Shown here: positions 1,454-30,337 of the stretch, piece by piece | Layout: each line of letters starts with the position of its first letter | How positions within the stretch are numbered: the stretch's first letter is position 1 | DNA from: an uncultured Gammaproteobacteria bacterium | GTDB taxonomy: Bacteria > Patescibacteriota > Microgenomatia > UBA12405 | Length of the DNA: 37,093 nt | NCBI GenBank assembly: GCA_964512875.1 | Contig: CAZEKY010000003.1 | Span: 1-37,093 of the forward strand | Reading direction: 5' to 3' | Program-made: the position numbers and the translations under genes | Notes under the pieces: generated by a model | Database searches by the model: none | Told to the model about the DNA's origin: nothing | The model's input: the letters and a program-made list of their open reading frames with translations, nothing else

Positions 1454-1681
1454 ATGAATAATAAAACTCCAATTTCTAAAGAAATATTAATTTTGGATTT
1501 GGTTGAACAATATCCAGAGCTGATTGAGACATTGACTGAAAAATATGGATTCCACTGTGTTGGCTGTTTGGCAGCATCGATGGAAAGTCTAGAAGAAGGA
1601 GCAAAAGTTCATGGAATGTCAAAAAGTGAAATAGATAGTCTGGTTGAAGAACTGAAAAAGAAAGTGAACCCAAAGAACTAA
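1454..1681 (+). CDS. DUF1858 / hybrid-cluster-protein-associated redox disulfide domain protein
   Basis: The 75-aa protein contains ILDLVEQYPELIETLTEKYGFHCVGCLAASMESLEEGAKVHG, the typical CxxC-containing DUF1858 pattern. Confidence 0.7.
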   Translation: MNNKTPISKEILILDLVEQYPELIETLTEKYGFHCVGCLAASMESLEEGAKVHGMSKSEIDSLVEELKKKVNPKN

Positions 1682-4003: not shown

Positions 4004-5950
4004 TCTTTCTGCTTCAGTATTAGTGGGATAAGAAAAATCAATAGCTTGTTGTAAATTTTTCTTCGCCAAATCGATTTGCTTATTTTTTAAATAAATTTTT
4101 CCGAGCGCAAAATAAGCATGATCATAATTTGCTTTTAACTCGATAGCTTTTTGATAATGACTAATTGCCTGATCGTTTAGATTGGCAGCTTCGAGAAATT
4201 GGGCTGCAGAATAGGGGATTTTGGGATCGCTTGGTGCCAGTTTGGCTGCGGTTGCAAGTGCAGCCAAACTTTGGGAAAAATATTTACCATCAATTGCAGA
4301 TAAATATAAATAGGTTTGAGCTCTTTGTTTCCAAAAATTAATATTAGCGGGTGATTTTTGAATCGTTAGATCGGAATAATAGATTGATTTCTCAAGAGAA
4401 TCTGGATCATTAGTGTTGAGTGCAAGCTTAGAATAGAGGCTGGCAAGCTTATCAGTGTAAAGAGGTTCGAAAGGATTAAATTCGTTACTTTTTTGAATAA
4501 AAGAAAGAGCCATTTGATAATTATTGATTGTTTCATAGTTTAGAGATTGGTTATAAGTAATGTCAGCCAAATAAAAGAAAATATTTTTCTTAAGCATCAA
4601 AAAGGTTAAGAATAATATGAAAATAATTAATAAATTATTAAAAGCCGGGTAAGAAATTTTTTTATCCTGGTCTTTTATTTTTTTATCGGTGTTAATCAAA
4701 AAAACAGGTAATAAATAAAAATAAAGAGAAGTGATTACTACGGAAAAGCCAGCTAGATTGGTAATTAAAATGCTGACAAAGGAGGCCAAAATGGCACTGT
4801 TAATATTTTTTTTAAATAAACCCCTAAGGCAAATAACAAGAACGGTGGTAATAAAAAAGACATAAGTGGCAAACCCAACAATGCCGGTAGTAGCAAGATA
4901 ATTTAGATATTCATTGTGAGCTTTGTTGTAGAGATAATCCCACTCGGAGGTTAAGTTATGAGAGATGGGTCGTGTCCAGTAATAGGAATAGGCAAAAGTT
5001 TCAACTCCGGTACCAAAATATGGAAATTTCTTCCAAAGGTCAATGGCTCCTTGCCAAACAATTTGACGAATTTGTCCCGATGGGGTAACAATTATGTTGT
5101 TGTTTTTGGCAACCGGCACTAAAGATTGGTTTTTGTTGATAAAAAAGTGATCTTTAATAGGGTTTTTAATGATAAAAGATAAAAGAATGATGATGATTAT
5201 TGGTAATAGTGAAAATTTGACTTCTTTATTTTTTAAATTTATTAAAAAACGAAGAAAATAATATAAAAAGGTGATTAACAAACAGGCAATAATTCCGGAT
5301 TTAGATTTTGTAAAAAGAAGAGAGGTGTAAAAAACAGAAAGTAAGAAATAATAAAACATCTTATTAGATAAAGTTTTAACACTTAGTAGCTGGTGATAAA
5401 TAAAAGGAATTAAGAGAAGGAGATAAGCTGCCAGCCAATTCGGTTGTCCCAGAGTAGAAAAAATTCTTGATTGCACATCTTGAACCCAATTGTCCTTGTC
5501 AATACCAAAATGCTGAGTAATTCCGTAAAGAGCAACAAGAAAAGCTGAAAAAAGAGAAACCTTGATAATTTTTTGTTTAAAATTATTGTCGATATAAACC
5601 ACTAAAATCCAATAAAGTAAACAGTAAGAAATAATTGAGAGCAAGCCTCCGTTCATCCGAGAGTAATATCCAAAAAAAGAAGTGTGTGGATCAATGGAAT
5701 AATAGGTTGAGATCACTTGAGAAACTAAAAATAAAAGGAGGGGAAGGTCAAAAATGCTTTTTCGATATAAGGGTTGTTTTTTTTGAAAGACATTAAGGAA
5801 ATGAAGAGAAGTAATGATGATCGTTAACAGATAAACGAAATACATTTTTGGCAACTCAAAGAGTTCTGAGTTGGACTGAGTAAAAATTAAAGGTGTTAAG
5901 AAAAATAAAAGCAAATAAAGCTTTTTAATTAAGGCTGTTAATAGTCTCAT
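3986..5950 (-). CDS. O-antigen ligase/polymerase-like polytopic membrane protein fused to C-terminal TPR repeats
   Basis: About 12 hydrophobic segments are followed by a Wzy_C-like loop (GQPNWLAAYL, HNEYLNYLATTG). After two more TM helices there are TPR-like repeats (AISHYQKAIELKANYDHAYFALGKIY). Confidence 0.7.
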   Translation of the reverse strand: MRLLTALIKKLYLLLFFLTPLIFTQSNSELFELPKMYFVYLLTIIITSLHFLNVFQKKQPLYRKSIFDLPLLLFLVSQVISTYYSIDPHTSFFGYYSRMNGGLLSIISYCLLYWILVVYIDNNFKQKIIKVSLFSAFLVALYGITQHFGIDKDNWVQDVQSRIFSTLGQPNWLAAYLLLLIPFIYHQLLSVKTLSNKMFYYFLLSVFYTSLLFTKSKSGIIACLLITFLYYFLRFLINLKNKEVKFSLLPIIIIILLSFIIKNPIKDHFFINKNQSLVPVAKNNNIIVTPSGQIRQIVWQGAIDLWKKFPYFGTGVETFAYSYYWTRPISHNLTSEWDYLYNKAHNEYLNYLATTGIVGFATYVFFITTVLVICLRGLFKKNINSAILASFVSILITNLAGFSVVITSLYFYLLPVFLINTDKKIKDQDKKISYPAFNNLLIIFILFLTFLMLKKNIFFYLADITYNQSLNYETINNYQMALSFIQKSNEFNPFEPLYTDKLASLYSKLALNTNDPDSLEKSIYYSDLTIQKSPANINFWKQRAQTYLYLSAIDGKYFSQSLAALATAAKLAPSDPKIPYSAAQFLEAANLNDQAISHYQKAIELKANYDHAYFALGKIYLKNKQIDLAKKNLQQAIDFSYPTNTEAERLFNSL

Positions 5951-10845: not shown

Positions 10846-13014
10846 TTAGATTTTCTTTCCCCATCTTTGCTGTGAGTTAGAAATGACTTTGTTTCTCTGT
10901 TGATTCTTACAGGATAAGGGAGCTAAAGTGTTGGCATAAAATGGTCTGGTAGTTTCTGAATCAATGGAAAGTTTTGATACTATTTGATATTTTCCAATCT
11001 TAATTAAGTCTTCAGGGGGAAATTCTGGCCCAAATTCTTTAGCTAGAATATAAGCATCCTGATTGCCAACAACAAAAGACATGATTGATCCAACATTTCC
11101 TAGGATGGCATCCTGAATCGGCTTGTCTAATTGAGACATGTATTGATTGGCAACAATTAGATTTAATTTAAACTTTCTTGCTTCTGAAAGAATTTTTATG
11201 AAAGCTTCAGTGGCAAAGTTTTGAAATTCATCGACATAGAGATAAAAATCAGCTCTTTCTTCAACAGACTGGAAAACGCGATTCATGGCTGAAAGTTGAA
11301 TTTGAGTAATTAACATGGCTCCAAGTAAGGCTGAGTTATCTTCTCCAAGTTTTCCTGAGGATAAATCGGCAATTAATATTTTTTTCTGATCCATAATATC
11401 TTGAATTCGAACTTTTGATTGTGGGTGAGCAATAGTATTTCGGATTTTGGTAGATGATAAAAATTGTCCAACTTTATTTAAAATAGGGGAGACGGCCTCA
11501 TTTTGAAATTTAGGGTCCATTCTGTCAAATTCATTTCTCCAGAAATTGATTAATGTTTGATTCGTTAACTTGGATACGGCTTGATTTCGGAAATTTTTGT
11601 TAGTTAAAATCTCAACAATGTGGGTCATGTCTGAGTTGGGAGTGTTAACTAAGGTTAAAACGGCATTTCTTAAAATATGTTCAAGGCGAGGACCCCAAGA
11701 AACATTTCCATATAATTTTTTAAAGATAGAAAGCACACCAGAAGCAATTAATTCTTTTTGAGATTCATTGCTGGCTTCTAAAACATTGAGAGGATAGGCG
11801 TATTCTGGATCAGCTGGATTAAAATAACAACAATCGTTGATTCTATTTGATGGAATGTAATCCAAAATGGTGTTACACAAGTCTCCGTGAGGATCGATAA
11901 CAGCAACACCTCTTCCTTTGCGAATATCATCAATGGCCATATTGGCAATAAGGGTGGTTTTACCAGTACCTGATTTACCGATGATATAGGTGTGACGACG
12001 TCGATCTTCACCTTCTTTTATGCCAAAAATGCAATCTTTGTTTCTAAATTCTGTTTTGGCAAAAAAAGTAATTTTATTTTTTTCTTCAAGTGTAAGACCA
12101 TCAGCAACTGGTAAATTTTCAGGAGGATCAGAATAAAGCTTTTTACCCCAAGCTATATTTGGCAACTTAGTATTTAAATTTGGAAAATGCCAAACAGCAG
12201 CCAATTCTTCGGTATTAAAAATTTGATTTTTAAGTTTAGAATTAAAATTACGATTATAAATTGAAGTTAAGAGATTTTTTTTATTAAAAAATCCATAAGG
12301 AAAGTTTTTAATAAAATTTCCTCTGGGATTGGTATAAGCACCAAAAGAAGAAGAGACAGAAGTAATTAAGCCAGGGTTATTACTTAATAAATTAATTTGA
12401 GTTGACAAGCCAGGGAATTGAATTTTTTGTTCAAAAATACTTTTATCTGGATGTGCAATTCGAATATTTTTTTCTCGATCAACTACAATTCCTTCTTGGA
12501 TAGTGTTTAAAATATTATTTTGCCAATTTTTAGGAGCAGAACTTAATAAAATTTGAAAAAGGAAAAAGTCTTTTGACTCATTAGATCTTGAGAGGGGAGC
12601 TAAAACAGAAGTTAAAGGATCGGTATCTTTAAAATCCTTGGCCGTTTTAACTGGATAACTCGAAGACCTGCCAAAACCAAGCTGAGTGTAACTTATGCCT
12701 AGTTGAGGATCTAGTTCACCAAGATAATCTGGAGATTCTTTCAGAATGGCAGTTGAATATTGGGCTAAAAATTGAGAACGAAGAAATTCTTTGTTTGATG
12801 ATTGGGTTGCAAGATAAAAATGAATTTGGCCTTCTTTTAAGACTATTTCTAATGAAACAATAGTATTTTTCTTACCAATTAATTTTTCAAAAAAAGAAAG
12901 ACTTGCTCCTCCTTGAGTAAAATTAGACAACAAAGCTGACATTGACTCAAAAGTATATTCATTATTTTGAGGCAATCTTACTTCAAAAATCGAAAGAAGA
13001 GGAATGTCGGGCAT
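10846..13014 (-). CDS. VirD4/TraD/TrwB-like (type IV coupling protein-like) P-loop ATPase with unassigned N-terminal half
   Basis: Walker A is IIGKSGTGKTTL, followed by VIDPHGDL, with Walker B in LYVDEFQNFAT and ARKFKLNLIVANQYMSQL. The first ~330 aa match no family I recognise. There are no TM segments. Confidence 0.65.
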   Translation of the reverse strand: MPDIPLLSIFEVRLPQNNEYTFESMSALLSNFTQGGASLSFFEKLIGKKNTIVSLEIVLKEGQIHFYLATQSSNKEFLRSQFLAQYSTAILKESPDYLGELDPQLGISYTQLGFGRSSSYPVKTAKDFKDTDPLTSVLAPLSRSNESKDFFLFQILLSSAPKNWQNNILNTIQEGIVVDREKNIRIAHPDKSIFEQKIQFPGLSTQINLLSNNPGLITSVSSSFGAYTNPRGNFIKNFPYGFFNKKNLLTSIYNRNFNSKLKNQIFNTEELAAVWHFPNLNTKLPNIAWGKKLYSDPPENLPVADGLTLEEKNKITFFAKTEFRNKDCIFGIKEGEDRRRHTYIIGKSGTGKTTLIANMAIDDIRKGRGVAVIDPHGDLCNTILDYIPSNRINDCCYFNPADPEYAYPLNVLEASNESQKELIASGVLSIFKKLYGNVSWGPRLEHILRNAVLTLVNTPNSDMTHIVEILTNKNFRNQAVSKLTNQTLINFWRNEFDRMDPKFQNEAVSPILNKVGQFLSSTKIRNTIAHPQSKVRIQDIMDQKKILIADLSSGKLGEDNSALLGAMLITQIQLSAMNRVFQSVEERADFYLYVDEFQNFATEAFIKILSEARKFKLNLIVANQYMSQLDKPIQDAILGNVGSIMSFVVGNQDAYILAKEFGPEFPPEDLIKIGKYQIVSKLSIDSETTRPFYANTLAPLSCKNQQRNKVISNSQQRWGKKI

Positions 13015-15331: not shown

Positions 15332-16369
15332 ATGAATCTTTTAATTTTTTTTCTTTCTTTGTCTGTTTTGGTTTTAGTTCATGAATTTGGGCATATGTTT
15401 GCAGCAAAAATTTCTGGAGTTAAAGTTGAAGAGTTTGGACTAGGCTTACCTCCAAGAATTATTGGAAAAAAATTTGGAGATACTATATATAGTATAAATT
15501 GGTTGATGATAGGTGGATTTTGTAAGCTTTATGGTGAAGATGGGGACGGGAAGGGAAATGTAGCTTTTAATAATAAAAATCCTTGGCAAAAACTTCTAAT
15601 CGTCTGTGGGGGTGTATTAATGAACGTTGTTTTGGCGGTGCTAATTTTTAGTATAGTTTATTCGATCTTGGGAGTGCCTAAAGAAACAGAAAAAGTAAAA
15701 ATAATTGGAGTTTCAAAAAATTCACCGGCCGATATGGCAGGTTTGAAGGAAGAAGACATTATTATAAAAGTGGCCGAGATGTCTGTTAAAAATCCTGCTG
15801 ATTTGACAAAAGAAATTTCTTCTTACAAAGGTAAAAAAGTAGCACTAACTGTCAATAATCTTGAAAATGTGGTGGAAATAGAAGTAAGAGAAAATCCACC
15901 GGAAGGAGAAGGTTCTATTGGAGTGGTTATCTCTAACACTGAAATGATAAAAGCTCCTTGGTACCGCTTTTATGAAGGGGTTGGTGCTGGTTTTAAAGAA
16001 GCCTATTTTTGGGGAAAGATAATCTTTAAAGGTGTTTTTGACATGATTGCTGGGCTTTTTAAGGGGCAAATTCCAAAAGATGTTAGTGGTCCGATAGGTA
16101 TGTTTGAGGCTACTAGCTCAATTAAAGAAAAGCAGGGGTTGTTGGCGGTCATTCATTTCTTTGGAATAGTTTCAGTTAATTTAGCAATAGTAAACATGTT
16201 GCCATTTCCAGCCTTGGATGGAGGAAGAATTGTTTTTGTGCTGTATGAAATAATTTTTAGAAGAAAAGTAAATCAAAAAATTGAAATGATAGTGAACAAT
16301 ATTGGAATGCTGTTGCTTTTAACTTTGATTTTAATGATAACGATTGGAGATATTAAGAGGTTTTTCTAA
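15332..16369 (+). CDS. rseP: RseP-type M50 site-2 metalloprotease with PDZ domain
   Basis: It has HEFGHMF, an internal PDZ domain (SPADMAGLKEEDIIIKV) and NMLPFPALDGGRI. Confidence 0.85.
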   Translation: MNLLIFFLSLSVLVLVHEFGHMFAAKISGVKVEEFGLGLPPRIIGKKFGDTIYSINWLMIGGFCKLYGEDGDGKGNVAFNNKNPWQKLLIVCGGVLMNVVLAVLIFSIVYSILGVPKETEKVKIIGVSKNSPADMAGLKEEDIIIKVAEMSVKNPADLTKEISSYKGKKVALTVNNLENVVEIEVRENPPEGEGSIGVVISNTEMIKAPWYRFYEGVGAGFKEAYFWGKIIFKGVFDMIAGLFKGQIPKDVSGPIGMFEATSSIKEKQGLLAVIHFFGIVSVNLAIVNMLPFPALDGGRIVFVLYEIIFRRKVNQKIEMIVNNIGMLLLLTLILMITIGDIKRFF

Positions 16370-16390: not shown

Positions 16391-16419
16391 TTGACAGTGA
16401 CCATTAAAAGTGTTTAACT
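16391..16419 (+). promoter_or_regulatory. candidate promoter (TTGACA-17 bp-TGtTTAACT) for the surface-protein operon
   Basis: A consensus -35 TTGACA is at 16391-16396. A TG-extended weak -10 is at 16411-16419. The site lies about 27 nt upstream of ATG 16446. Confidence 0.35.
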
Positions 16420-16445: not shown

Positions 16446-17984
16446 ATGAATAAACAAAAAGGGATTGCTCAAATTTTCGTGATGGTAATTATGTTAGTAA
16501 TGGCAATAGCACTACCAATAACTACAAAACTGGTACAACAAAGTCAAGAAAATAGAAGCAAGGCAACATCTAGTGAAATTTGTATTAATTATGATATTCC
16601 ACAATACTATGTTGCAGATACTGGATATGGATGTGAGATGACGAATTGTGCTGAAACTTGCAAGGATAAAGTTTGTTTTTCGACTGAGTCTCAATGTTTG
16701 GCAACTTTGACTTGTAAAAATTCTGCTGTTCTTCGGGATGATGTGAGATATTGGCACAGTACAACAACAAATAAGTGCGTAGAAGTAAAGGCTTCTGAGT
16801 GTGAGGGCTGTGGTTTGGGTGGAACTAAAGTTTGTTATGAAGAAGAAATTGGTTGTTCTCAAGCTAATCAATCATCAACATCATTAACGTCATCGTCAAC
16901 ATCGTCAACATCATCAACATCATCAACATCATCAACATCGTCAACATCAAATACTAATTTATCGACAAATTCTTGTGTTACAGAATGCCCCTCTGGACAA
17001 ACAAATGTTAATTCTACTTGTCCAATTGGTTATGTTAGTGATAATAGTACTTGTTCAATATTGCAAAAAGAAATTAATGGATGTAATTATCTTGAGTGTT
17101 GCAGTTGTAAGAAAGCTAGCAGCTGTATCCCAAGTTGTGCTTGTAGCAAAGACACTTTAGTCGGAAAAACTTGTTCAAATGGTTGCGGGGGTTTTTGTGA
17201 TGGAATAAAAACTGAAACACCTGTTGAAAGTAATAATACAAATACTGAAAGTTCATCATCGACTGAAACACCTGTTGAAAGTAATAATACAAATACTGAA
17301 AGTTCATCATCGACTGAAACACCTGTTGAAAGTAATAATACAAATACTGAAAGTTCATCATCTGATAGTGTTACAAAACTGGCTATAAGATTTGCTTATG
17401 CCGGTATTAAACCAAATAATGATTCTTGTGCTACAAATATTTGGCCGATAACATCGAAGATATCAATGTCTTCTAATATAATAGGAGACTTTGGCGCTGG
17501 ATCAGATTCTCTTTATTTGACAGAGGGAATACCAAAAAAAACGAGCTCTTTAAATTCAAAAGGAGAAATTGTCTATGAATACGGACTAGATTTTTCTGGA
17601 GAAGGAGACATTTCTGACATATATTTCTCTTTTTTCCTAAAGGGGCCAAAACATATTTTTATTAAATATGGTCAAAATAAACAAAACAAATGGTATGACT
17701 CTTTGGTGGGTAAAATAAAACTTGTTCCAGGAGAAAATGCTTTTGATTTTTCTGAATATCCAATTTTTGCCGGGGATGTGACAGGTGAAATTAATGAAGT
17801 TCCTGATGGAAAATTAGATGGAAGAGACTGGTCTTACATAAAGGAAAAAGCAAATAAATTACTGGTCGCAGCTGAAGCTGGAACTGATGTGAGCGGTGAT
17901 ATTAACGGAGACTGCCAGGTTAATAGTGGCGATGTTCGCTTAATAAAACAAATGTTGTCAGAAGTTAATGGGCAAACATATTAA
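16446..17984 (+). CDS. membrane-anchored or secreted Cys-rich modular surface protein with C-terminal dockerin-like module
   Basis: It has an N-terminal hydrophobic anchor, two Cys-rich blocks, an (SST)n linker and three 17-aa repeats. A beta-rich region follows. The C-terminus (nt 17772-17981) carries two Ca-loop-plus-helix repeats, GDVTGE..PDGKLDGRDWSYIK and GDINGDCQVNSGDVRLIKQML. Confidence 0.8.
   Translation: MNKQKGIAQIFVMVIMLVMAIALPITTKLVQQSQENRSKATSSEICINYDIPQYYVADTGYGCEMTNCAETCKDKVCFSTESQCLATLTCKNSAVLRDDVRYWHSTTTNKCVEVKASECEGCGLGGTKVCYEEEIGCSQANQSSTSLTSSSTSSTSSTSSTSSTSSTSNTNLSTNSCVTECPSGQTNVNSTCPIGYVSDNSTCSILQKEINGCNYLECCSCKKASSCIPSCACSKDTLVGKTCSNGCGGFCDGIKTETPVESNNTNTESSSSTETPVESNNTNTESSSSTETPVESNNTNTESSSSDSVTKLAIRFAYAGIKPNNDSCATNIWPITSKISMSSNIIGDFGAGSDSLYLTEGIPKKTSSLNSKGEIVYEYGLDFSGEGDISDIYFSFFLKGPKHIFIKYGQNKQNKWYDSLVGKIKLVPGENAFDFSEYPIFAGDVTGEINEVPDGKLDGRDWSYIKEKANKLLVAAEAGTDVSGDINGDCQVNSGDVRLIKQMLSEVNGQTY
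16872..16949 (+). repeat. in-frame 9-bp microsatellite (TCR-TCA-ACA)n encoding (SST)n
   Basis: About 8.5 units were read directly. They encode SSTSLTSSSTSSTSSTSSTSSTSSTS. Confidence 0.85.
17211..17363 (+). repeat. 3 x 51-bp near-perfect tandem repeat encoding TETPVESNNTNTESSSS
   Basis: Units start at 17211, 17262 and 17313. Units 1 and 2 are identical, and unit 3 differs only at its last base. Confidence 0.95.
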
Positions 17985-18005
17985 AAATTAATTTGAAATA
18001 AGAAA

Positions 18006-18599
18006 ATGGAGAATAAAATAATAAAAATATTAATACCAATTATTGCTATCGTTATCATTTTTGAAAGTGTAGTTCTTGTTTCAAGTTTAGAGAAAAAAGA
18101 AACAGAAGTGATCTCTGTGGACCAAAAGGAAGAAGTTGTGGTGGAGAAAAAGATTATTTATGATGTATCTTTAAGTTCTGAGAACCAGGAAGTATCAGTT
18201 GGGAAAAAAACTAAAATTAGCGCAAAAATAAAAGCGATGGAAGATAGTAATCTAAATGCTTTAGATCTTTATATCAAGTATGATCCTGAAATGATTACTA
18301 TTTCCAACTTGTCAGCAACTAAAGAACTAGAAACCCCTACATTTTTAAAAGCAAGTGAGAAAAAGAAGGTAATTGCGGTTAATTATCTATTTGAAGATAA
18401 AGAAGGTGCTTCATTTGTTAAAAATCAAGAAGTACTTTTACTTACTTTTGATGTAACTCCGATAAAGACAGGAGAAGGGTATTTTGAAATAAGTACTGGA
18501 GATAGCGAGGGAGATTCTGTTACTATGTTTGTAGATAAAATTTCTAGTAAAGGATTAGATTTTGCTAGTAATAAGTTAGAGATGTTATTTATAAAATAA
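18006..18599 (+). CDS. membrane-anchored cohesin-like domain protein
   Basis: An N-terminal TM helix (IIKILIPIIAIVIIFESVVLV) is followed by a cohesin-like pattern. That pattern is VSVGKKTKISAKIKAMEDSNLNALDLYIKYDPEMITISNL ... EVLLLTFDVTPIKTGEGYFEI. Confidence 0.7.
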   Translation: MENKIIKILIPIIAIVIIFESVVLVSSLEKKETEVISVDQKEEVVVEKKIIYDVSLSSENQEVSVGKKTKISAKIKAMEDSNLNALDLYIKYDPEMITISNLSATKELETPTFLKASEKKKVIAVNYLFEDKEGASFVKNQEVLLLTFDVTPIKTGEGYFEISTGDSEGDSVTMFVDKISSKGLDFASNKLEMLFIK

Positions 18600-18600
18600 A

Positions 18601-19293
18601 ATGAAAAAAACTGCCATAAATATTTTCTTTTTTGCTTTTTTATTTTTTGCTTTTAAAGCAATACCTGCAGTTGCAGTAGCAGCTCCAAGATTGACTTTAA
18701 CTCCAATAAATGGAAGTTTTACAAATGGTTCAGAATTTAAAGTTTCAATTGGTGTGAATTCTGATGGAGAAAAATCAAGCGCAGTAGATGTTTGGTCGAC
18801 CTTTGATAATTCAAAATTAGAAATTGTAAGTATCGTAAAATCAGCGAATCCACCTTTTGCTTTTGAAATTAGCCCTGATTTTGATAATAAAACTGGAAAT
18901 TTCAAATTTTCTTGTGTGTCAACAAATCCAAGTGGTTTAGATGATGTTGCCATTAATGGAGAATTAGCGGTTGTAACATTTCGAGCAAAAGAAACAGGAA
19001 CTGCTTTTTTAAAGTTTACATGCAGCAATGGATCAACAACCGATTCAAATATTTTCAACTCAGACGTTAATGATGTAATTAGTTGTGCCTCTAATAGTGT
19101 TGGATCATACACGATAACGGCAGGCTCTTCTTCAACAACAACAAATCCAACATCAACTCCAACTCCAACAGTTGTGACTACTGTGGCAAAAACAACAACT
19201 TTACCTCAAACAGGGGCTGTCGGTTCAACCATTGGATTAATTATTTTTGGAGCTATTAGTTTAGCTTCAGCCGTTTTTTTGAAATTCCTATGA
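18601..19293 (+). CDS. secreted cohesin-like domain protein with LPXTG-type C-terminal sorting signal
   Basis: It has a signal peptide ending AVAVAAP and a cohesin-like core, GSEFKVSIGVNSDGEKSSAVDVWSTFDNSKLEIVSI ... GELAVVTFRAKETGTAFLKF. A Thr/Pro linker follows, then LPQTG (19201-19215), a 25-aa hydrophobic tail and the stop. Confidence 0.75.
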   Translation: MKKTAINIFFFAFLFFAFKAIPAVAVAAPRLTLTPINGSFTNGSEFKVSIGVNSDGEKSSAVDVWSTFDNSKLEIVSIVKSANPPFAFEISPDFDNKTGNFKFSCVSTNPSGLDDVAINGELAVVTFRAKETGTAFLKFTCSNGSTTDSNIFNSDVNDVISCASNSVGSYTITAGSSSTTTNPTSTPTPTVVTTVAKTTTLPQTGAVGSTIGLIIFGAISLASAVFLKFL

Positions 19294-19901
19294 AAGGAAA
19301 AGTTAATCTAAAAACAATAATCACTTTTGCTATTTTGATTTTAGTTATTGTCTTGTTAGTATTAGGCTTAAATGTGGCAAGAACTTTTATGAGTGGTGCA
19401 ACTGCTGATTATGAGCCCCAAAACTTAACCGAAACACCAAGTGCTGATGGAAGTAGCGCAACTATTTCTTGGACCACAGACAAAGCGGTAGAGGGAGCTA
19501 TTTACTATGGAACCAATATGGCAAGTTTACTGTTAGTGGCAAAAGATGTTGAAGCGGTGACAGAGCATAATGTTTTGCTGACAAATTTACGTCCAAATAA
19601 AACCTATTATTACAAAATTGTTGCAGGTGAAAATATTTATGACAATGCTAACATGATGTTTAGTTTTAAAACTGGAGGGAAAGAAGAAGTGGCCGTCCCT
19701 TCAATCGTACCAACAGTCATACCAACAATTACTTCGGCAGTAACTCTACCAGAAGCAAGCAGTTCAAGTGAATCTGGATCAGGAACATCAGATCTTTGCA
19801 ATAAAACTACAGATTACAATCAGGATGGAGTAATAAACAGTTTGGATTATCTTAATTGCTTAAAAGGTAAAATAAGTCCAACAAAGGCCGTAACTAATTA
19901 A
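19290..19901 (+). CDS. membrane-anchored FN3-like domain protein with C-terminal single dockerin/EF-hand-like loop
   Basis: It has a TM anchor and an FN3/purple-acid-phosphatase-N-like module (SATISWTTDKAVEGAIYYGT ... LTNLRPNKTYYYKIVAG). A Pro/Ser linker leads to DYNQDGVINSLDYLNCLKGK (19812-19871). The ATGA start overlaps the upstream stop. Confidence 0.7.
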   Translation: MKGKVNLKTIITFAILILVIVLLVLGLNVARTFMSGATADYEPQNLTETPSADGSSATISWTTDKAVEGAIYYGTNMASLLLVAKDVEAVTEHNVLLTNLRPNKTYYYKIVAGENIYDNANMMFSFKTGGKEEVAVPSIVPTVIPTITSAVTLPEASSSSESGSGTSDLCNKTTDYNQDGVINSLDYLNCLKGKISPTKAVTN

Positions 19902-19908
19902 TAAGGTA

Positions 19909-19940
19909 TGATAAAATAGGAAACTTTAATAAAGGAGGTG
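19909..19940 (+). promoter_or_regulatory. extended -10 (TGaTAAAAT 19909-19917) plus strong Shine-Dalgarno (AAAGGAGGTG 19931-19940) for rpsU
   Basis: Both motifs were read directly. The ATG is at 19951. Confidence 0.45.
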
Positions 19941-19950
19941 CTAGTTATTA

Positions 19951-20169
19951 ATGCCAATTATAGTTAAGAAAAACAAAGGTGAATCCAAGGACGATATCAT
20001 TGGAAAATTTAGAAGACTTTGCATGGAAGAAGACATAACTGAAGAGGTTAGAAAAAGAGCTTCTTATGTAAAACCTTCTGAAAAAAGATATGCCTTAAAA
20101 AAGGTTTTGGTATGGCGAGATAAATGTCGCCGTAAAGCTAAAAGTTCAAGAAGACATGATACGAGATAA
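19951..20169 (+). CDS. rpsU: 30S ribosomal protein S21
   Basis: The sequence MPIIVKKNKGESKDDIIGKFRRLC...YVKPSEKRYALKK and a basic C-terminus match S21. Confidence 0.85.
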   Translation: MPIIVKKNKGESKDDIIGKFRRLCMEEDITEEVRKRASYVKPSEKRYALKKVLVWRDKCRRKAKSSRRHDTR

Positions 20170-20587
20170 ATTAAAAATAGACAGTATTAATGCATTAAAA
20201 AGCCACGATAATAAGCGGGTGGATGTTTTGCGTTTCCTAATATCGTTAATTGATAAAAGAGAGATGCAATTACCACCCGCTGCTTTTAATGAGGCCGAAG
20301 AAATGGGAGTGATTCGAAAAGAATTAAAAAATAAGGAAGAATCCAGAGAAATATTTTTAAAAGGTGAAAGAAAAGATCTGGTAGAACAAATGGATTATGA
20401 AATTCAAATAGTAAAAGAATATTTACCGGAAGAAATAAGTGAAAGCAAAATTACTGAAATTGTTGATAGGGTCATTTTGGAAAAAGGAAATAATTTTGGA
20501 ATGGTAATGAAAGAGGTAATGATTGAACTTAAAGGTGCAGTTGATGGGGGTGTAATCTCAAAAATAGTAAAAGATAAGTTGGCATAA
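20156..20587 (+). CDS. yqeY: GatB/YqeY domain protein
   Basis: INALKSHDNKRVDVLRFLISLIDKRE and the overall length fit the family, as does the conserved position after rpsU. It overlaps rpsU by 14 nt. Confidence 0.75.
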   Translation: MIRDKLKIDSINALKSHDNKRVDVLRFLISLIDKREMQLPPAAFNEAEEMGVIRKELKNKEESREIFLKGERKDLVEQMDYEIQIVKEYLPEEISESKITEIVDRVILEKGNNFGMVMKEVMIELKGAVDGGVISKIVKDKLA

Positions 20588-20593
20588 TTTGCT

Positions 20594-20962
20594 ATGTTAA
20601 AGAATATTGTTTTAATAAATCATAATAAAAATTGGGGACTGGAAGAAGAGACGATTGAAAAACTGGCTCAAAAAGCACTGATAGAAAAAAAATTAACTAA
20701 CGGAATTGAATTAAGTCTTTTTTTTGTTGGTAAAAAAAAAGCTAAAAGTCTAAATCTTGATTATAGAAAAATGTCTTATATACCTCAGGTTTTGGGCTTT
20801 CCTATGTCAAAAGATAAAGATGCTGATGGTCGAATAAGGCTTGGAGATGTCGTTATTTGTACCCAAAAACTGAAATATGAAGTTAAGTTTCAAGAATCTG
20901 ATTTAAACACAATTCTTTATAACTGGTTGCTTCATGGAATTGATAATCTCCTTAAAGATTAA
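20594..20962 (+). CDS. ybeY: YbeY-like protein (rRNA maturation RNase family) with degenerate metal site
   Basis: LNLDYRKMSYIPQVLGFPM and RLGDVVIC match YbeY. The C-terminus LLHGIDNLLKD replaces the HGxLHLxGxDH motif and then stops. Confidence 0.55.
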   Translation: MLKNIVLINHNKNWGLEEETIEKLAQKALIEKKLTNGIELSLFFVGKKKAKSLNLDYRKMSYIPQVLGFPMSKDKDADGRIRLGDVVICTQKLKYEVKFQESDLNTILYNWLLHGIDNLLKD

Positions 20963-21018
20963 GGACTGATACAGTTTGGATTATTGTAAAGTGAAGCCTA
21001 TTCTGCTTTAATTTTTTG

Positions 21019-22605
21019 ATGTCTGTTTTTCACTTAAAATATAGACCACTGAGGTTTTCTGATCTTGATTTGGTGGATGTTGCCGAAAATTTAAAAAAAT
21101 ATCTGTCTGAAAGCGAGACGCCACAATCTTTTTTATTGTCTGGGCCAAAAGGATCTGGTAAAACATCTGCGGCAAGAATTATTGCTAGAGCTGTAAACTG
21201 TACTGATCTTAAGGATGGAGAACCATGCGGAAAATGTGACAGCTGCAAGGAGATTATAAAAGATGGATCAATGGACGTAATTGAAATGGATGGAGCTTCA
21301 AACAGAAGAATTGAGGATGTTAGAAATCTAAAAGATAAGGCTTATTTATTGCCAAGTAAATTAAAAAAGAAGGTTTTTATCATTGATGAAGTTCACATGT
21401 TAACCAAAGAAGCCTTTAATGCCTTGTTGAAGCTAATTGAAGAACCACCCAAACACACCATCTTTGTTTTATGTACAACTGATGCGGAAAAAATTCCAGA
21501 TACCGTTCTGTCAAGATTAATTAAGGTAGATTTTAGAAAGGGAGGGGAGCTGGAGTTATTAAAGTCATTGGAAAAAATAATAAAAGGAGAAAAAATTGAG
21601 ATTGATAAAGAGGCGGTTTCTTTTATCGTTAGTAAAAGTGATGGAAGTTTTAGAAACCTACAAAGAAATTTTAACGAACTATATTTGCAGTTGGGTAAAA
21701 AAATTAAGAGTGAGGATGTTTACGCCTTTTATTTAAATAAAAGCGGTAATTACAAGGAAGAAGATTTTGATAATGATTTAGATTCTGGTGATGCAAAGAT
21801 AATGTTGGAAAAGATTGAAAAAATGGCAACAGATGGTGTTGATTTTTCCGTTTTTAGACTCAAATTAATGAATTATTTTCAAAAAAAGATTTTGTCTTTT
21901 TGGGGAATAGGTGAGGAAAATAAAAAGGGAATCAACTCAGATGAGTGTAATTTTTTAATGAACTTATTAATTAAAGCTGCAAAACAAGAAAAAGAAGTTG
22001 ATATTGATCAGCTGCCAATGGAGTTAGTGGTGGTTGAGTTTGTAGAAACAAAAAGAAAATCTACCCAAATAATAAAGGTGGAAAAAAAAGATATTGATAA
22101 GGAAGAAAAAAAAAGCCCAGTGGTAGAAGTTAAAGAAAAAAAAGAAGCTAAAATTGAGGTGGAAAAAAAAGAGAAAAATGAAATAATAGTAAGCGAAACG
22201 GTTGACAATAAACAATGTATCAGTCCGATACACATTGATGAGATTACGGAAAAATGGGGGAATTTATTAACAGCAATAAAACCTTGCAACTGTTCTGTTG
22301 AAGCATTTTTAAGAGCGACTCGGCCACGATCGTTAGAAGAAGATGTCTTAACGCTCGAAGTTTTTTATCCTTTTCACAAAGACAGACTGGAAGAACCAAG
22401 AAATAGAAAAATAGTCGAAGATGGAATGATTAAGGTTTTTGGCTTGAATCTTCATTTTGAGTGTATTTTGGCAAAAAATAAAAAGGAACCATTGGTTATA
22501 AAAAACGATACTCCAATGGAGCATGTCAGTGAGCAGTTATCAGAAGAAGAGCAGAAATCAAAGACTGGAGATATTTACGATGTCGCCAAGGAAATATTTG
22601 GTTGA
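21019..22605 (+). CDS. dnaX: DNA polymerase III subunit gamma/tau
   Basis: Motifs are LLSGPKGSGKTSAARIIARAVNC, the zinc module CGKCDSC, Walker B FIIDEVHML and SRL. A Lys/Glu-rich linker and a C-terminal tau-like domain follow. Confidence 0.9.
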   Translation: MSVFHLKYRPLRFSDLDLVDVAENLKKYLSESETPQSFLLSGPKGSGKTSAARIIARAVNCTDLKDGEPCGKCDSCKEIIKDGSMDVIEMDGASNRRIEDVRNLKDKAYLLPSKLKKKVFIIDEVHMLTKEAFNALLKLIEEPPKHTIFVLCTTDAEKIPDTVLSRLIKVDFRKGGELELLKSLEKIIKGEKIEIDKEAVSFIVSKSDGSFRNLQRNFNELYLQLGKKIKSEDVYAFYLNKSGNYKEEDFDNDLDSGDAKIMLEKIEKMATDGVDFSVFRLKLMNYFQKKILSFWGIGEENKKGINSDECNFLMNLLIKAAKQEKEVDIDQLPMELVVVEFVETKRKSTQIIKVEKKDIDKEEKKSPVVEVKEKKEAKIEVEKKEKNEIIVSETVDNKQCISPIHIDEITEKWGNLLTAIKPCNCSVEAFLRATRPRSLEEDVLTLEVFYPFHKDRLEEPRNRKIVEDGMIKVFGLNLHFECILAKNKKEPLVIKNDTPMEHVSEQLSEEEQKSKTGDIYDVAKEIFG

Positions 22606-22684
22606 TAGTTTTAAGCTATTTATTAGATTTTGTTATGACTTTATGGGTTATAATTACCATATATTATTTTTTTAGATAATTCTT

Positions 22685-22933
22685 ATGTTTGATAAAGCAA
22701 AAATGATTTCTCAGGCTTATAAGCTTAAAAAAGCAATTGAGTCAGAAACAATAGAAATTGAAGAATCGGGAATAAAAGTTATTGTTAGTGGTGACCAAAA
22801 ATTAAAATATTTGTCAATAAATGGAATCGAAAATAAAATATTGATAGACACAATTAATAAAGGAATGAAAAAATCTCAAGAAATGGCAGCTAAAAGAATG
22901 AAAGATATGGGTGGACTAGATGGTTTGTTTTAA
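22685..22933 (+). CDS. ybaB: YbaB/EbfC family nucleoid-associated protein
   Basis: Size, position in the dnaX-ybaB-recR synteny, and the pattern AYKLKKAIESETIEIEESGIKVIVSGDQKLKYLSI all fit the family. Confidence 0.8.
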   Translation: MFDKAKMISQAYKLKKAIESETIEIEESGIKVIVSGDQKLKYLSINGIENKILIDTINKGMKKSQEMAAKRMKDMGGLDGLF

Positions 22934-22948
22934 ATTTAAATAATTTTA

Positions 22949-23566
22949 ATGGCTGAATTACCAAAAAGTATCAAGAATTTAATTGCAGCATTTGAGAGAT
23001 TGCCAGGGATTGGTCCTAAAAGTGCAAGCAGATTGGTTTTTTATTTATTAAACACTCCAGAATCTTACATAAACGAAATATCAAGATCTCTTTTGGCGAT
23101 TAAAAAAGAAGTAAAAATTTGTAAAGAATGTTTTTCGGTAACTGAAGACGAAGTTTGTGCTATTTGTCGTGACGAAAAAAGAAATAAAAATATAATATGT
23201 GTAGTAGAAAGAGTTATTGACGTAATTGCAATTGAGGGGATTGGTGGACTTAACGGTGTCTATCACGTCTTGGGTGGAGTCATTAACCCCTTGGATCATG
23301 TCGGACCTGAAGATATAAAAATTAATGAGCTTTTACAACGAATTTCTAAACTAAGTGATCAGAGTGATGTTGAAATTATTTTAGCAACTAATCCAACCAT
23401 GGAAGGGGAAGCAACGGCCTTATATATTAAAAAGAAAATTGAAAATCTTAATAATAAAAATATAAAAATATCCAGAATAGGTAGCGGATTGCCAATGGGT
23501 GCTGATTTAGAATATGCCGATCAAGCAACTTTAAGTAGAGCAATGGACGGAAGAAGGGAGATATAA
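22949..23566 (+). CDS. recR: recombination protein RecR
   Basis: It has helix-hairpin-helix LPGIGPKSASRL, the zinc finger CKECFSV..CAIC, and a Toprim domain (ICVVERVIDVIAIE). Confidence 0.9.
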   Translation: MAELPKSIKNLIAAFERLPGIGPKSASRLVFYLLNTPESYINEISRSLLAIKKEVKICKECFSVTEDEVCAICRDEKRNKNIICVVERVIDVIAIEGIGGLNGVYHVLGGVINPLDHVGPEDIKINELLQRISKLSDQSDVEIILATNPTMEGEATALYIKKKIENLNNKNIKISRIGSGLPMGADLEYADQATLSRAMDGRREI

Positions 23567-23571
23567 AAAAT

Positions 23572-24045
23572 ATGGTTAATAACATAATTAAAGACTTTAA
23601 AAAAGGAATAGTTGAACTTGGAGCGGAAAGCGTCGAAAAATTAGTAGAGGAAAGCGTTAAGATTGTTGAGCCAATAATTACAGCTAAAGAATTGCTTGGT
23701 AACATAAGTCCAATGAGTGAAGAGGAAATGTCCAGAAAAAAGAATAAAGATGAGCATGAGAAAGAAGAAGAATTAAAAAAAATAAGATCACAATTCGCTG
23801 GTAGATCGATAGAAAATGAAATGCAAGAGCTGCGAAATAAAAAGGAAAGAGAGGAGAGAGAAAGGGAGAGCTTAATTGAAAAAAATAAAAAGATAGAAGC
23901 TGATCAAAAGGCTTATGTCTTAGATGCAGATTATAATTTAAGTTCAGCTAGCCACAGTAAAAGAAAAAATCCATTTAGGAAAAAAAGTGAACCGGATGCT
24001 TCTCAAATGTCGCAAACGACCGAGTTTAAGGGTAAAATAAACTAA
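23572..24045 (+). CDS. hypothetical highly charged (Lys/Glu-rich, probable coiled-coil) protein
   Basis: The ORF sits tightly between recR and cysS, with 5-nt and 3-nt gaps. It has no recognisable motif and no TM segment. Confidence 0.55.
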   Translation: MVNNIIKDFKKGIVELGAESVEKLVEESVKIVEPIITAKELLGNISPMSEEEMSRKKNKDEHEKEEELKKIRSQFAGRSIENEMQELRNKKEREERERESLIEKNKKIEADQKAYVLDADYNLSSASHSKRKNPFRKKSEPDASQMSQTTEFKGKIN

Positions 24046-28577: not shown

Positions 28578-29615
28578 ATGAATAAAAAAATTAAATGGTT
28601 ATTGATTGGTTTGACGGCTGGAGTTTTGATATCTGCTTCTCTTTTATTAATAATTTTTAGTAAATTTAGCAACAAAACAGAAATAAAAATTGTTGATGAA
28701 GAATCAGTAGTGACTCAAGTTGTAGAGAGAGCCACGCCAAGTGTGGTAACTATTTCGGTAAAAGAGATCGATGGGGTAATAAAAGATGTTGGTAGTGGTT
28801 TTATTGTAACGAAAGATGGTTTTATTGTGACCAACAAACACGTGGTGGCCGAAATTGGGCTTGAATATGAGGTGATAATTGGAAAAGACGAAGTGGTCGT
28901 TGTTAAAAACATATACCGAGACCCTTTGAATGATTTAGCAATTCTTTATGTGGAAAAAAATAATTTAAACACCGTTGAGTTAGGTGATTCTGATTATCTA
29001 AAAGTTGGACAATCAGTTATTGCGATTGGAACGGCCTTGGGTGAGTTTAGATCAACAGTGACAACAGGTGTGATTTCTGGATTGGGAAGGGGAATAACGG
29101 CAGGATCAACAATTGGGGTAGAAAAATTAGAAGATGTTATTCAAACCGATGCGGCAATAAATCCTGGTAATTCCGGTGGGCCATTATTTAATTCTGCCGG
29201 CCAGGTAATAGGGGTAAATGTGGCAGTATCTGCAAGTGGACAAAATATTGGCTTTGCTCTGCCTATTAATTTAATAAAAGAATCGATTAATTATTTTAGA
29301 GAGACTGGAGAATTTGAAAGACCTTATTTGGGTGTTTCTTACAAAATGGTAAAGCAGCAAGAAGCTTTAAAAAATAAAATAGTTTCTGGTGCTTGGGTCC
29401 AACAAGTCGCAGATAATAGCCCAGCTTACAAGGCGGGAATCGTTAATGGTGACTTTATTACTAAAATAGATGGAAAAAATTTAATTGATTCAGACAATGG
29501 AGATTTAGTTAAGGAAATAAATAAAAAGAAAATTGGAGAAACAATAAAAGTAACAATTTGGAGAGAAAAAAAAGAATTGACCCTTGATGTCCTTTTAGAA
29601 CAAAAAAAGAATTAA
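28578..29615 (+). CDS. htrA: HtrA/DegP-family trypsin-like serine protease with PDZ domain
   Basis: The catalytic triad context is [14 protein letters not shown] and GNSGGPL, with a C-terminal PDZ domain. ATG 28578 is preceded by AAGGAG (28569-28574). The longer ORF from 28548 was rejected. Confidence 0.88.
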
Positions 29616-30337
29616 CTTTTTTTCTCTTCTGGCTGATCTAAAACTGTCAATTCTAAAAATAAATCATCCAACTCTCCTTGCATAATACTGTCAAGGTTGT
29701 TAAATGATTTTTCTATTCTATGGTCTTTAACCTGATTTCTGGGGTAATTATATGTTCTAATTTTATCGGCCCTGGTTGACTGACTGATACCAGCTCGACC
29801 AGCAGAAATTTCTGCCTTTTTTTTATCTTCTTCTATTTGCCAAAGTTTATTTTGAAGCAGTCGAAGAGCAATTTCTCTATTTTGTTGTTGAAAACGTTCA
29901 GTTCTGACATCAAACATTAAACCTGTTGGTTTATGAACGAGATGAACAGCGGTTGAAACTTTGTTAACGTTTTGACCACCATTACCACCAGCACGAGAGG
30001 CGGTTATTACGACATCGTCCATACTAAAATTAATTTCTTTAGATTCAATTTGAGGCATAATAGCAATAGACGCGGTTGAGGTTTGAATTCTACCCCTTTT
30101 TTCGGTAATAGGAATTCGTTGAACACGATGAGTTCCAGCTTCATATTTCAACTGATTGTAAGCATCAAATCCGGAAATCTGAATAATGTTTTCATCTATT
30201 TGACTTACTTTCCATCCAACTTTATTAGCATATCTGGTGTACATGTTCATCAAGTCGTTTGACCAGATAGTTGCTTCTTGTCCCCCTGGACCAGGATGAA
30301 ACTCCATTATGGCAATATTTGAATTTATTAAAGGCAT
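29612..30337 (-). CDS. prfA: peptide chain release factor 1-type protein lacking the N-terminal domain 1
   Basis: It has GGQ in [26 protein letters not shown] and an RF1-type PxT tripeptide in [18 protein letters not shown]. At 241 aa, the alignment starts at about residue 112 of a canonical RF1. An in-frame TAA lies 3 codons upstream of the ATG. Confidence 0.8.

Follow-up and report, generated by a model that had tools for sequence, protein, structure and literature searches.

A 37-kb stretch of genomic DNA, hereafter the window (37,093 nt; contig CAZEKY010000003.1 of assembly GCA_964512875.1), carries four adjacent genes, here called G1 to G4, which in our judgement probably encode an enzyme-free cohesin-dockerin docking system in a Shapirobacteria-like cell envelope, displaying a rapidly varying, Cys-rich surface protein. 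The strongest available support for docking of these diverged modules is a Rosetta-stone pattern in related loci, described below. An earlier note on this DNA had reported four co-directional open reading frames (ORFs), the first three separated by 21 nt and 1 nt and the last two overlapping by 4 nt (ATGA). This layout is as claimed, and the peptide motifs quoted with it are all present (G1 aa 441-509; LPQTG, G3 aa 201-205; DYNQDGVINSLD, G4 aa 175-186). All four proteins carry a hydrophobic segment near the N-terminus, one each, and G3 has another after LPQTG:

16446-17984, plus strand: G1, ORF of 512 aa; dockerin-bearing cargo protein of the fused G0+G1 type.
18006-18599, plus strand: G2, ORF of 197 aa; membrane-anchored cohesin.
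18601-19293, plus strand: G3, ORF of 230 aa; sortase-substrate cohesin.
19290-19901, plus strand: G4, ORF of 203 aa; membrane-anchored FN3-like protein with a C-terminal single-loop dockerin.

The conservation set comprised 25 loci from genomes or assemblies and 80 from metagenomes; labels such as L001 and L003 denote these related loci. Conservation of the four-gene block, which the earlier note had asked to see, is complete to the extent that every locus with enough sequence has G1-G2-G3-G4 in this order upstream of rpsU. In these Shapirobacteria and Woesebacteria (Patescibacteria) loci the operon lies directly upstream of rpsU-yqeY-ybeY-dnaX, with rseP upstream of it in most and Wzy_C and glycosyltransferase genes in a few. 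The ratio of non-synonymous to synonymous substitution rates (dN/dS), computed against locus L026 (~93-97% nucleotide identity), is 0.26 for the G1 C-terminus, 0.19 for G2, 0.10 for G3 and 0.04 for G4; housekeeping neighbours in the same strain comparison range from 0.05 to 0.18. The four genes are thus functional and under purifying selection, and their invariant order together with dN/dS values of 0.04-0.26 makes the four-gene observation real and far above chance.

G3 had been described as a signal peptide, a cohesin-like module, a Thr/Pro stalk and an LPQTG sorting signal, and this architecture is borne out:

18601-18681, plus strand: G3 signal peptide.
18682-19128, plus strand: G3 cohesin, with invariant Cys141 and Cys162.
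19129-19200, plus strand: G3 Thr/Pro stalk.
19201-19215, plus strand: G3 LPQTG sorting signal (aa 201-205).
19216-19290, plus strand: G3 hydrophobic tail, a 22-residue hydrophobic segment, ending KFL.

The AlphaFold2 model of G3, built on an 87-sequence alignment, has a predicted local distance difference test (pLDDT) score of 84.3 with a core above 90. When this model was searched against the PDB with Foldseek, the best 50 matches were all cohesins (best E 1.5e-9), with target-normalised TM scores of 0.72-0.78 against type I cohesins; the predicted fold is the nine-stranded beta jelly-roll of cohesins. Cohesins were not significant when the G3 family profile was compared with PDB sequences (best E 0.056), so only the fold comparison settled the cohesin identity. 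More than 200 full-length homologues share 44-97% identity; many carry a precomputed PF00963 assignment and are named as cohesin or LPXTG proteins of Ca. Shapirobacteria or Woesebacteria, and the nearest named relatives are 'cohesin domain-containing protein' entries in Ca. Shapirobacteria, Woesebacteria and Patescibacteria metagenome-assembled genomes (MAGs). The anchor profiles TIGR01167 (16.3 bits, cut-off 15.9) and Gram_pos_anchor (19.9, cut-off 20) score on either side of their thresholds. L201, G205 and T210 are invariant and P202 and T204 at least 90% conserved in the 87-sequence alignment, and L201, P202, T204 and G205 are invariant in a 19-sequence alignment. G3 therefore has the layout of an LPXTG sortase substrate: signal peptide, LPXTG, hydrophobic stretch and tail.

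G2, for which a membrane anchor and a cohesin-like module had been proposed, answers that description:

~18027-18086, plus strand: G2 transmembrane segment, hydrophobic; Glu20-Ser21 invariant in 12 orthologues.
18159-18584, plus strand: G2 cohesin, by family-profile match.

The cohesin assignment was obtained at the family level. Cohesin is matched by 53 of 85 family members (best 7.8e-9), and a profile of the family finds cohesins of solved structure at E 3.2e-6; 17 of the 18 matches listed at E<=0.1 are cohesin or cohesin-like. This is a small, uniform family: at 50% identity it has 118 clusters in a set of 1.84 billion representatives, and nearly all members are ~200 aa long. Its profile aligns in register with that of G3 at E 3e-4 with 85 sequences; a G2-G3 comparison with 12 sequences only was not significant. 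The transmembrane segments of G2 and G4 look functional rather than like simple cleavable signals, perhaps making contacts within the membrane.

The dockerin-bearing partners are G1 and G4. The earlier view of G1 as a Cys-rich modular protein with a two-segment C-terminal dockerin agrees with its 28 Cys, 26 of them in aa 41-300, and with a Dockerin_1 match. Its parts, including those defined with custom hidden Markov models (HMMs), are as follows:

16446-16565, plus strand: G1 "nt", conserved N-terminus (aa 1-40), MNKQKGIAQIFVMVIMLVMAIALPITTKLVQQSQENRSKA; nt HMM 5e-26.
16566-17345, plus strand: G1 hypervariable Cys-rich, Ser/Thr-rich body; 26 Cys, without a Pfam domain.
16871-16949, plus strand: 9-nt (SST)n Ser/Thr repeat in the G1 body, 8 copies, 100% matches in the tandem-repeat scan.
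17211-17362, plus strand: perfect 3 x 51-nt tandem repeat in the G1 body (TETPVESNNTNTESSSS x3), 100% matches.
17379-17765, plus strand: G1 modX (HMM aa 312-440), a conserved ~125-aa beta-rich module directly before the dockerin; invariant Cys328; HMM 8e-36.
17766-17972, plus strand: G1 docA (aa 441-509), GDVTGE..PDGKLDGRDWSYIK plus GDINGDCQVNSGDVRLIKQML; invariant Cys490; HMM 4e-31.

The C-terminal 215 aa of G1 score 23.1 bits against Pfam Dockerin_1 (PF00404; cut-off 22.9). All 12 of 12 G1 orthologues match this family, the best at 7.4e-12, and in alignments with complete dockerins of solved structure the docA family profile spans both segments (E 1.1e-5), so that G1 has the two segments of a type I dockerin. 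A multi-dockerin protein matched by the docA profile, P0130, was set aside as unrelated. Conservation in G1 is limited to the first ~47 and last ~210 residues. Word-index homologue searches with the C-terminus gave 3 and then 10 relatives, and the modX HMM matches all G1 orthologues, always in an X-module-like position. In all orthologues aligned, modX and docA have one invariant Cys each. The modX-docA end is a candidate X-module-dockerin dyad; the AlphaFold model of modX, built from the few C-terminal relatives, is beta-rich and of low confidence (pLDDT 55.7), and a fold search of this model against the PDB gave no match at E<=0.001. The body between the conserved ends is unalignable between orthologues, whose G1 length ranges from 385 to 1043 aa, and its 51-nt and 9-nt repeats are candidates for copy-number variation.

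The N-terminus of G1 consists of a single hydrophobic segment (aa 3-32) followed by a polar KLVQQxQENR tail. It is the most conserved part of the protein and of its relative G0, introduced below: aa 1-47 are 81% identical to L003, compared with 71% for RseP, and the nt HMM matches G0 or fused G1 in all complete loci (e.g. L001, L003, L007, L010, L013-L016, L018-L024). Its sequence suggests a signal particular to the lineage, for export, anchoring or processing, possibly a signal-anchor or an unusual signal peptide. A type IV pilin-like (class III) signal, to which it bears a superficial likeness, was considered and rejected: the candidate site MNKQKG/IAQIF has no Glu at +5, and neither Pfam N_methyl nor NCBIfam prepilin profiles match the G1 N-terminus at E<=10.

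For G4, the transmembrane segment, the FN3-like domain and the single Ca-loop stand as originally described, but the loop is half of an ancestral two-repeat dockerin:

19314-19382, plus strand: G4 transmembrane segment (with juxtamembrane residues to 19400); invariant K8, T32, G36 and A37.
19407-19679, plus strand: G4 FN3-like domain; Pur_ac_phosph_N, 40.7 bits.
19680-19793, plus strand: G4 Pro/Thr/Ser linker, 38 residues.
19794-19895, plus strand: G4 docC, C170-x4-DYNQDGVINSLD-x3-C190, with a single loop at aa 175-186.

Pfam assigns the folded domain to Pur_ac_phosph_N, an FN3-like family (cut-off 30), with fn3 at 20.2 bits and a weaker fn3_SORL1; it therefore belongs to the FN3 class, and 13 of 14 family members have an FN3-like domain. 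Dockerin_1 matches 9 of the 14 (best 5e-8), with the window protein itself at 15.4 bits, below the cut-off. Distant orthologues have two Cys-flanked loops, and the clade of the window (the window, L001 and L007-L010) has one; judged from this comparison, the window docC is a half-dockerin derived from a true two-loop dockerin. G4 contains exactly two Cys. Taken together, the paired invariant Cys suggest that disulfides staple the extracellular modules (G1 C328-C490, G4 C170-C190, G3 C141-C162).

The argument that these modules dock comes from a fifth gene. The earlier note had regarded the four genes as a self-contained set; two cohesins and two dockerins are indeed found here, but the ancestral unit had five genes, three cohesins and three dockerins. 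In many relatives G1 is preceded by G0, whose N-terminus is that of the window G1 (KG[I/F]AQI..., a hydrophobic helix, KLVQQxQENR), whose variable, Cys-rich body reaches up to 1643 aa, and whose C-terminus is a two-repeat dockerin of a third class, docB (GDxNCDGxIxxxDFSxW ... DFNCNGxVxxxDFSIW). Only in these loci does G1 begin with a short transmembrane segment and a module that aligns over its full length with cohesins of the G3 family (hhalign, 142 columns, probability 93%, E 2.5e-7); in the full-length split-type G1, Pfam finds no cohesin, and a PDB sequence search with its small profile was empty. Split-type G1 and the extra docC proteins described below share a related N-terminal motif, a transmembrane segment followed by LVxQxQxTRRGA or EDSRILG.

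A census with one custom HMM per module over all loci, dereplicated at 97% to 36 distinct loci, placed 25 in the split class (G0 with docB, G1 with a cohesin) and 11, the window among them, in the fused class, in which a G0-type N-terminus and Cys-rich body are joined straight to modX-docA and both docB and the G1 cohesin are absent. Neither class includes L009, which has a run of N, or L025, a long-read contig with a frameshift. No real discordant locus was found among the 36. L093, which seemed to have docB without a G1 cohesin, was dismissed as an exception; it has a split-type N-terminus and a diverged cohesin-like module that the cohG2 HMM detects at a relaxed threshold (E 1.5e-5). Cohesins and dockerins accordingly number 3:3 in split loci and 2:2 in fused loci. 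Fitch parsimony on a neighbour-joining tree of G2+G3+G4, computed like our other trees without support values, gives split as the ancestral state and at least 7 transitions, and the fused state is similarly scattered on a tree of four housekeeping genes. From these patterns the window G1 is a fusion of ancestral G0 and G1 with the loss of one cohesin-dockerin pair, and the exchange explains why split loci have three cohesins and three dockerin classes and the window two of each. In at least seven lineages docB has disappeared along with the G1 cohesin, and a covalent fusion stands in their place; we read this repeated swap of a joint for a peptide bond as Rosetta-stone evidence that the modules dock.

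None of the four window proteins has a catalytic domain or a carbohydrate-binding module (CBM) in Pfam scans, which agrees with the earlier note. The same holds for the wider set: among all G0, G1, G4 and additional dockerin carriers within ~9 kb of the operon, in ~100 loci, none has a Pfam domain for catalysis or carbohydrate binding. In the 37-kb window, G1 and G4 alone contain matches to the dockerin-loop motif. Within what the operon and ~100 related loci cover, the non-cellulosomal reading holds. The only extra dockerin-bearing ORFs near the operon are two in L012 and one each in L019 and L084, all between G4 and rpsU:

L012:1959-2801, L012:2813-3703, L019:10477-11346 and L084:3731-4645: extra ORFs whose products combine a single docC loop with a transmembrane anchor, Cys-rich modules and a Pro/Thr linker.

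By their domain composition, these would be additional non-catalytic cargo for the same socket class.

It is nevertheless conceivable that the operon is the anchor of a true cellulosome-like, polysaccharide-degrading complex, into whose G2 and G3 (in relatives also the G1 cohesin) dockerin-bearing glycoside hydrolases encoded elsewhere would plug. This is how Bell et al. read the expressed cohesin/dockerin proteins of Shapirobacterales, citing the same for Roizmanbacterium (PMC9123182). L021 carries a GH39 gene on the opposite strand, immediately upstream of G0 and ~7 kb from G3, and several cargo proteins per dockerin class would suit a plug-and-play system: L016, L020 and L043 have two G1 paralogues, and L012, L019 and L084 have the extra docC proteins. 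Of the hallmarks of a cellulosome, only surface anchoring is found here, through the G3 LPXTG and the G2 transmembrane segment. Enzyme cargo is absent from the window and the related loci, where the dockerin carriers lack catalytic domains and CBMs, and so is a multi-cohesin scaffoldin with a CBM: the window proteins have one cohesin each, and the most in any relative is two, in the G1 of L010 and L022. Moreover, module numbers are 1:1 inside the operon, the block lies in a core housekeeping neighbourhood rather than in an island of carbohydrate-active enzymes, and the published cellulosome claim is founded on CDD domain matches alone. On balance we consider a cellulosome unlikely.

The architecture that the earlier note had distinguished is supported: two anchoring cohesins, G2 with a membrane anchor and G3 with an LPXTG wall signal, and two dockerin-bearing partners, G1 and G4. 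If the docking reading is correct, G3 would be exported, cut at LPQTG and linked covalently to peptidoglycan, and G2 would be held in the membrane by its N-terminal helix with the cohesin facing outside. G1 modX-docA and G4 docC would each occupy one of the two cohesins, and a Cys328-Cys490 disulfide would probably lock docA and modX into an X-dockerin-like unit. With less assurance, we suggest that docA plugs into wall-anchored G3, which would place the variable body outside the wall, and that docC, on its 38-residue linker, plugs into G2. A mirror-tree comparison with species divergence removed weakly favours the docA-G3 pair: docA and modX co-vary with the G3 cohesin at partial r 0.73 and 0.60, and with the G2 cohesin at 0.53 and 0.32; the precedent of ScaE and X-dockerins agrees. 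The other dockerin, docC, co-varies little with either cohesin. The opposite assignment (docC-G3, docA-G2) may be suggested by the translational coupling of G3 and G4 and by the long G4 linker, which would reach a wall socket. As the co-variation test is confounded, either pairing is possible.

Synonymous divergence from L026 falls stepwise from 0.34 in G4 through 0.15 in G3 and 0.08 in G2 to 0.013 in the G1 C-terminus, set against 0.07-0.29 in housekeeping genes (window 17613-24042), which suggests a recent recombination tract ending in G1/G2. Contigs frequently end in or beside G0/G1 (L002, L006, L007, L008, L011, L012, L017, L026 and 17 metagenome loci), and a contig end cuts G1 in 19 loci; such breaks fit repeats or strain-level hypervariability that disrupts assembly.

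The same opposite pairing belongs to a second alternative, in which the operon is a housekeeping envelope device, a membrane-wall tether or a support for an S-layer-like coat: G4 would be riveted to G3 and G1 to G2, and the variable body would be a coat protein diversifying under phage or predator pressure. Several observations are in keeping with this. The block is conserved clade-wide between the core genes rseP and rpsU and is under strong purifying selection, and the transmembrane segments show high conservation and contain polar residues that never vary (G2 Glu20-Ser21; G4 K8, T32, G36, A37). The G3/G4 ATGA overlap of the window, with similar overlaps in orthologues, is consistent with 1:1 production; the long G4 linker is suited to reaching the wall; and cohesin proteins come directly after GroEL in the ranked Shapirobacterales metaproteome. 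However, the G0/G1 body varies extremely in length (385-1643 aa) and sequence, contains perfect tandem repeats and often coincides with the ends of contigs, features more typical of proteins that interact with ligands or hosts, and docC shows little co-variation with either cohesin. We therefore regard a purely housekeeping device as unlikely, noting that this role and adhesin display are not mutually exclusive.

Returning to the enzyme-free docking system, its likely role is attachment to host cells or particles, or some other surface recognition. We propose attachment because the cargo is hypervariable, repeat-containing and disulfide-rich and because an episymbiotic lifestyle has been reported for the group.

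A number of points weigh against this reading. The case for cohesin-dockerin binding is comparative, the trees behind the count of transitions are neighbour-joining trees without support values, and in the mirror-tree analysis the G2 and G3 cohesins themselves co-vary (r 0.49), while a recombination tract spanning the G1 C-terminus, G2 and G3 would give the same pattern. The adhesive role is drawn from the nature of the cargo and the reported lifestyle. Dockerin-bearing enzymes elsewhere in the genome are possible. No sortase gene lies within the 37-kb window or the flanks of the related loci. Taken singly, the window modules are also faint: G3 has no Pfam Cohesin match even at E<=10, G2 reaches 23.8 bits against a PF00963 cut-off of 24.1, loop 1 of the window docA has a 7-residue insertion (GDVTGEINEVPDGKLDGRD, where some relatives have the canonical GDMNGDGKIDSRD), and docC, being a degenerate single loop, is not a two-segment dockerin.

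The last of these points might mean that the window modules are relics that no longer dock, the four proteins acting independently as ordinary membrane or wall proteins. The second docC repeat has been lost in the window clade, docA loop 1 is interrupted, and the Pfam scores of the window proteins lie at or below the cut-offs. Yet all Asp/Asn positions of the Ca-loop and the flanking Cys are conserved in the remaining docC loop, as is docA loop 2; the single-loop docC is common to the whole window clade and is under purifying selection (G4 dN/dS 0.04); and the docA loop-1 insertion is shared with L009 and L010, with a similar one in most other orthologues. We consider loss of docking very improbable.

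The operon lies in a core-genome stretch of ~32% GC, preceded in the window by fmt, def, mreB, PBP2, topA, rpsB, tsf, frr and rseP and followed by rpsU, yqeY, ybeY, dnaX, recR, cysS, rpsF, ssb, ctpA, htrA, prfA-like, hisS and dnaB. Two claims about its transcription are not supported. A promoter had been placed at 16391-16419; TTGACA is present at 16391-16396, but the -10 hexamer that a 17-nt spacer gives, TTAACT, matches at 3 of 6 positions, and a promoter consensus scan did not list the site, returning 18 promoter-like sites where shuffled sequences give 16.9, no excess. The argument that rpsU has its own promoter and that the four genes are thus one unit is likewise unsupported; rpsU is preceded by a strong ribosome-binding site, AAGGAGGTG. 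A site scan found no terminator-like site between G4 and rpsU, and a delimitation of the unit by promoter or terminator is not supported.

We assign the window to Patescibacteria from its own genes and from synteny and identity with Shapirobacteria contigs. Several deposited records say otherwise: operon contigs L005, L007, L008, L010, L012 and L014 belong to MAGs labelled 'uncultured Eubacteriales' or 'uncultured Gammaproteobacteria', and one of them, a 1.9-kb contig in a MAG labelled Eubacteriales, has G3 and G4 100% identical (protein) to those of the window. These labels are probably binning or labelling errors.

Other neighbouring genes deserve brief mention:

3986-5950, minus strand: Wzy_C+TPR protein, ~10 kb upstream of the operon.
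10846-13014, minus strand: 722-aa HerA/DUF87/TrwB-like ATPase, divergent, upstream of rpsB.
29612-30337, minus strand: class-I release factor of 241 aa, with the C-terminal half of PCRF, an RF-1 domain, GGQ and a PIT (PxT) motif.
1678-2283, minus strand: small M50-family peptidase (201 aa), additional to the RseP-like M50+PDZ protein at 15332-16369.

In loci without rseP upstream, the operon adjoins Wzy_C (O-antigen-ligase-like) and glycosyltransferase genes (L019:3569-5407, L023:1952-3775, L024:1477-3294); such neighbours may be linked to glycosylation of the Ser/Thr-rich surface proteins. In L018 a 660-aa protein (L018:2118-4100) with PA14, a carbohydrate-binding or adhesin-type domain, lies between frr and rseP, just upstream of the operon. 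The HerA/DUF87/TrwB-like protein is a conserved ATPase of this core neighbourhood, with counterparts at the same position in L003, L004 and L025 that additionally bear DUF8128. The release factor apparently lacks N-terminal domain 1, and since its start lies 59 nt after rpmE it seems truly short rather than mis-called.

Several known systems resemble parts of the operon. In Ruminococcus flavefaciens the sortase-anchored type III cohesin ScaE binds the X-dockerins of ScaB and of CttA, a non-enzymatic adhesin. Like G3, ScaE is a single-cohesin wall anchor with a C-terminal LPXTG, and its structures (2zf9) are among the G3 fold matches; its partners, like G1, have a conserved module directly before a C-terminal dockerin, and the genes are clustered in both systems. 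Here, in contrast, no multi-cohesin scaffoldin or enzymes are linked to the operon, an additional membrane cohesin (G2) and a membrane-anchored FN3-dockerin protein (G4) are present, Cys pairs appear to staple the dockerins, the hypervariable cargo is rich in Cys, the organism is a Patescibacterium and the neighbourhood is that of core ribosomal-protein genes. Sortase anchoring of Ruminococcus scaffoldins has been described (PMC11557425). Non-cellulosomal cohesin-like modules of C. perfringens (2jh2, 2vo8, 2ozn) and the Archaeoglobus fulgidus cohesin (2xdh) also appear among the fold or profile matches of G3 and G2. In Clostridium perfringens, cohesin-dockerin modules join enzymes in toxin and glycosidase complexes such as NagJ, whereas here there is no enzyme, the sockets are proteins devoted to envelope anchoring, and the genes form a conserved operon; a survey of non-cellulosomal cohesin-dockerin modules reportedly covers three domains of life. 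The hierarchical logic by which a cargo protein's module and dockerin would dock on a cell-bound cohesin is similar to that of Clostridium (Acetivibrio) thermocellum, where CipA XDocII binds SdbA, OlpB or Orf2p, and type II cohesin structures are among the G3 fold matches. That system is anchored through S-layer homology (SLH) domains and has a scaffoldin of nine cohesins with a CBM3 and dozens of enzymes; here anchoring would be by sortase or transmembrane segment, with no SLH, nine-cohesin scaffoldin, CBM3 or enzyme set.

Full-text literature searches found no description of the operon, and mentions of cohesin or dockerin in the candidate phyla radiation (CPR), Patescibacteria or Microgenomates were at annotation level only. 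One such report is that of Bell et al. (2022, ISME J), who found cohesin/dockerin proteins expressed in Cand. Shapirobacterales, read them as a cellulosome and cited Cand. Roizmanbacterium likewise (PMC9123182). Next in rank to GroEL among the Shapirobacterales proteins of their Dataset S6 come cohesin-domain proteins, and the adjacent k141_22004_38, _39 and _40, detected at the protein level, are annotated as cohesin, dockerin type I and dockerin type III (PMC9123182); by annotation and order alone, these would fit G2-G1-G0 reversed. In the same dataset, sortase-type surface proteins seem to dominate the detected CPR proteomes (PMC9123182). The lineage is the same as ours or close to it, and the report, resting on CDD domain matches only, does not contain the operon, the anchors, the lack of enzymes or the split/fused pattern. 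The presence of cohesin and dockerin in this lineage is thus already known, annotated and published at domain level. No earlier description seems to exist of a conserved, enzyme-free operon whose sockets lie in membrane and wall, of its three classes of dockerin, of a single Cys-stapled loop or of the repeated exchange between split and fused states.

To our knowledge, host and surface attachment in candidate-phyla-radiation bacteria is largely unknown outside Saccharibacteria, in which type IV pili are implicated. A broader reading, which we hold tentatively and as possible rather than probable, is that the core genome of Microgenomates (Shapirobacteria, Woesebacteria and relatives) encodes an enzyme-free plug-and-socket apparatus of up to three tiers, in which membrane and wall sockets hold a hypervariable, disulfide-rich adhesin as a main device for attachment to hosts or surfaces; its non-covalent joint would have been exchanged for a peptide bond at least seven times, and its dockerins would include forms for which we found no description, a single disulfide-stapled Ca loop and a dockerin disulfide-bonded to an X-like module. 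The operon is conserved, belongs to the core genome and, judging by the published groundwater metaproteome, is probably highly expressed; its components are small, soluble modules open to direct tests in vitro. A single-loop dockerin of this compact, disulfide-stapled kind could possibly serve as a small affinity tag. With dockerin carriers that are non-catalytic here, the operon corrects a spreading reading of Shapirobacterales and Roizmanbacterium cohesin/dockerin proteins as evidence of cellulosomes and carbon degradation. Finally, the swap between joint and fusion amounts to a natural experiment on what the joint is for, and predicts that docB pairs with the G1 cohesin.

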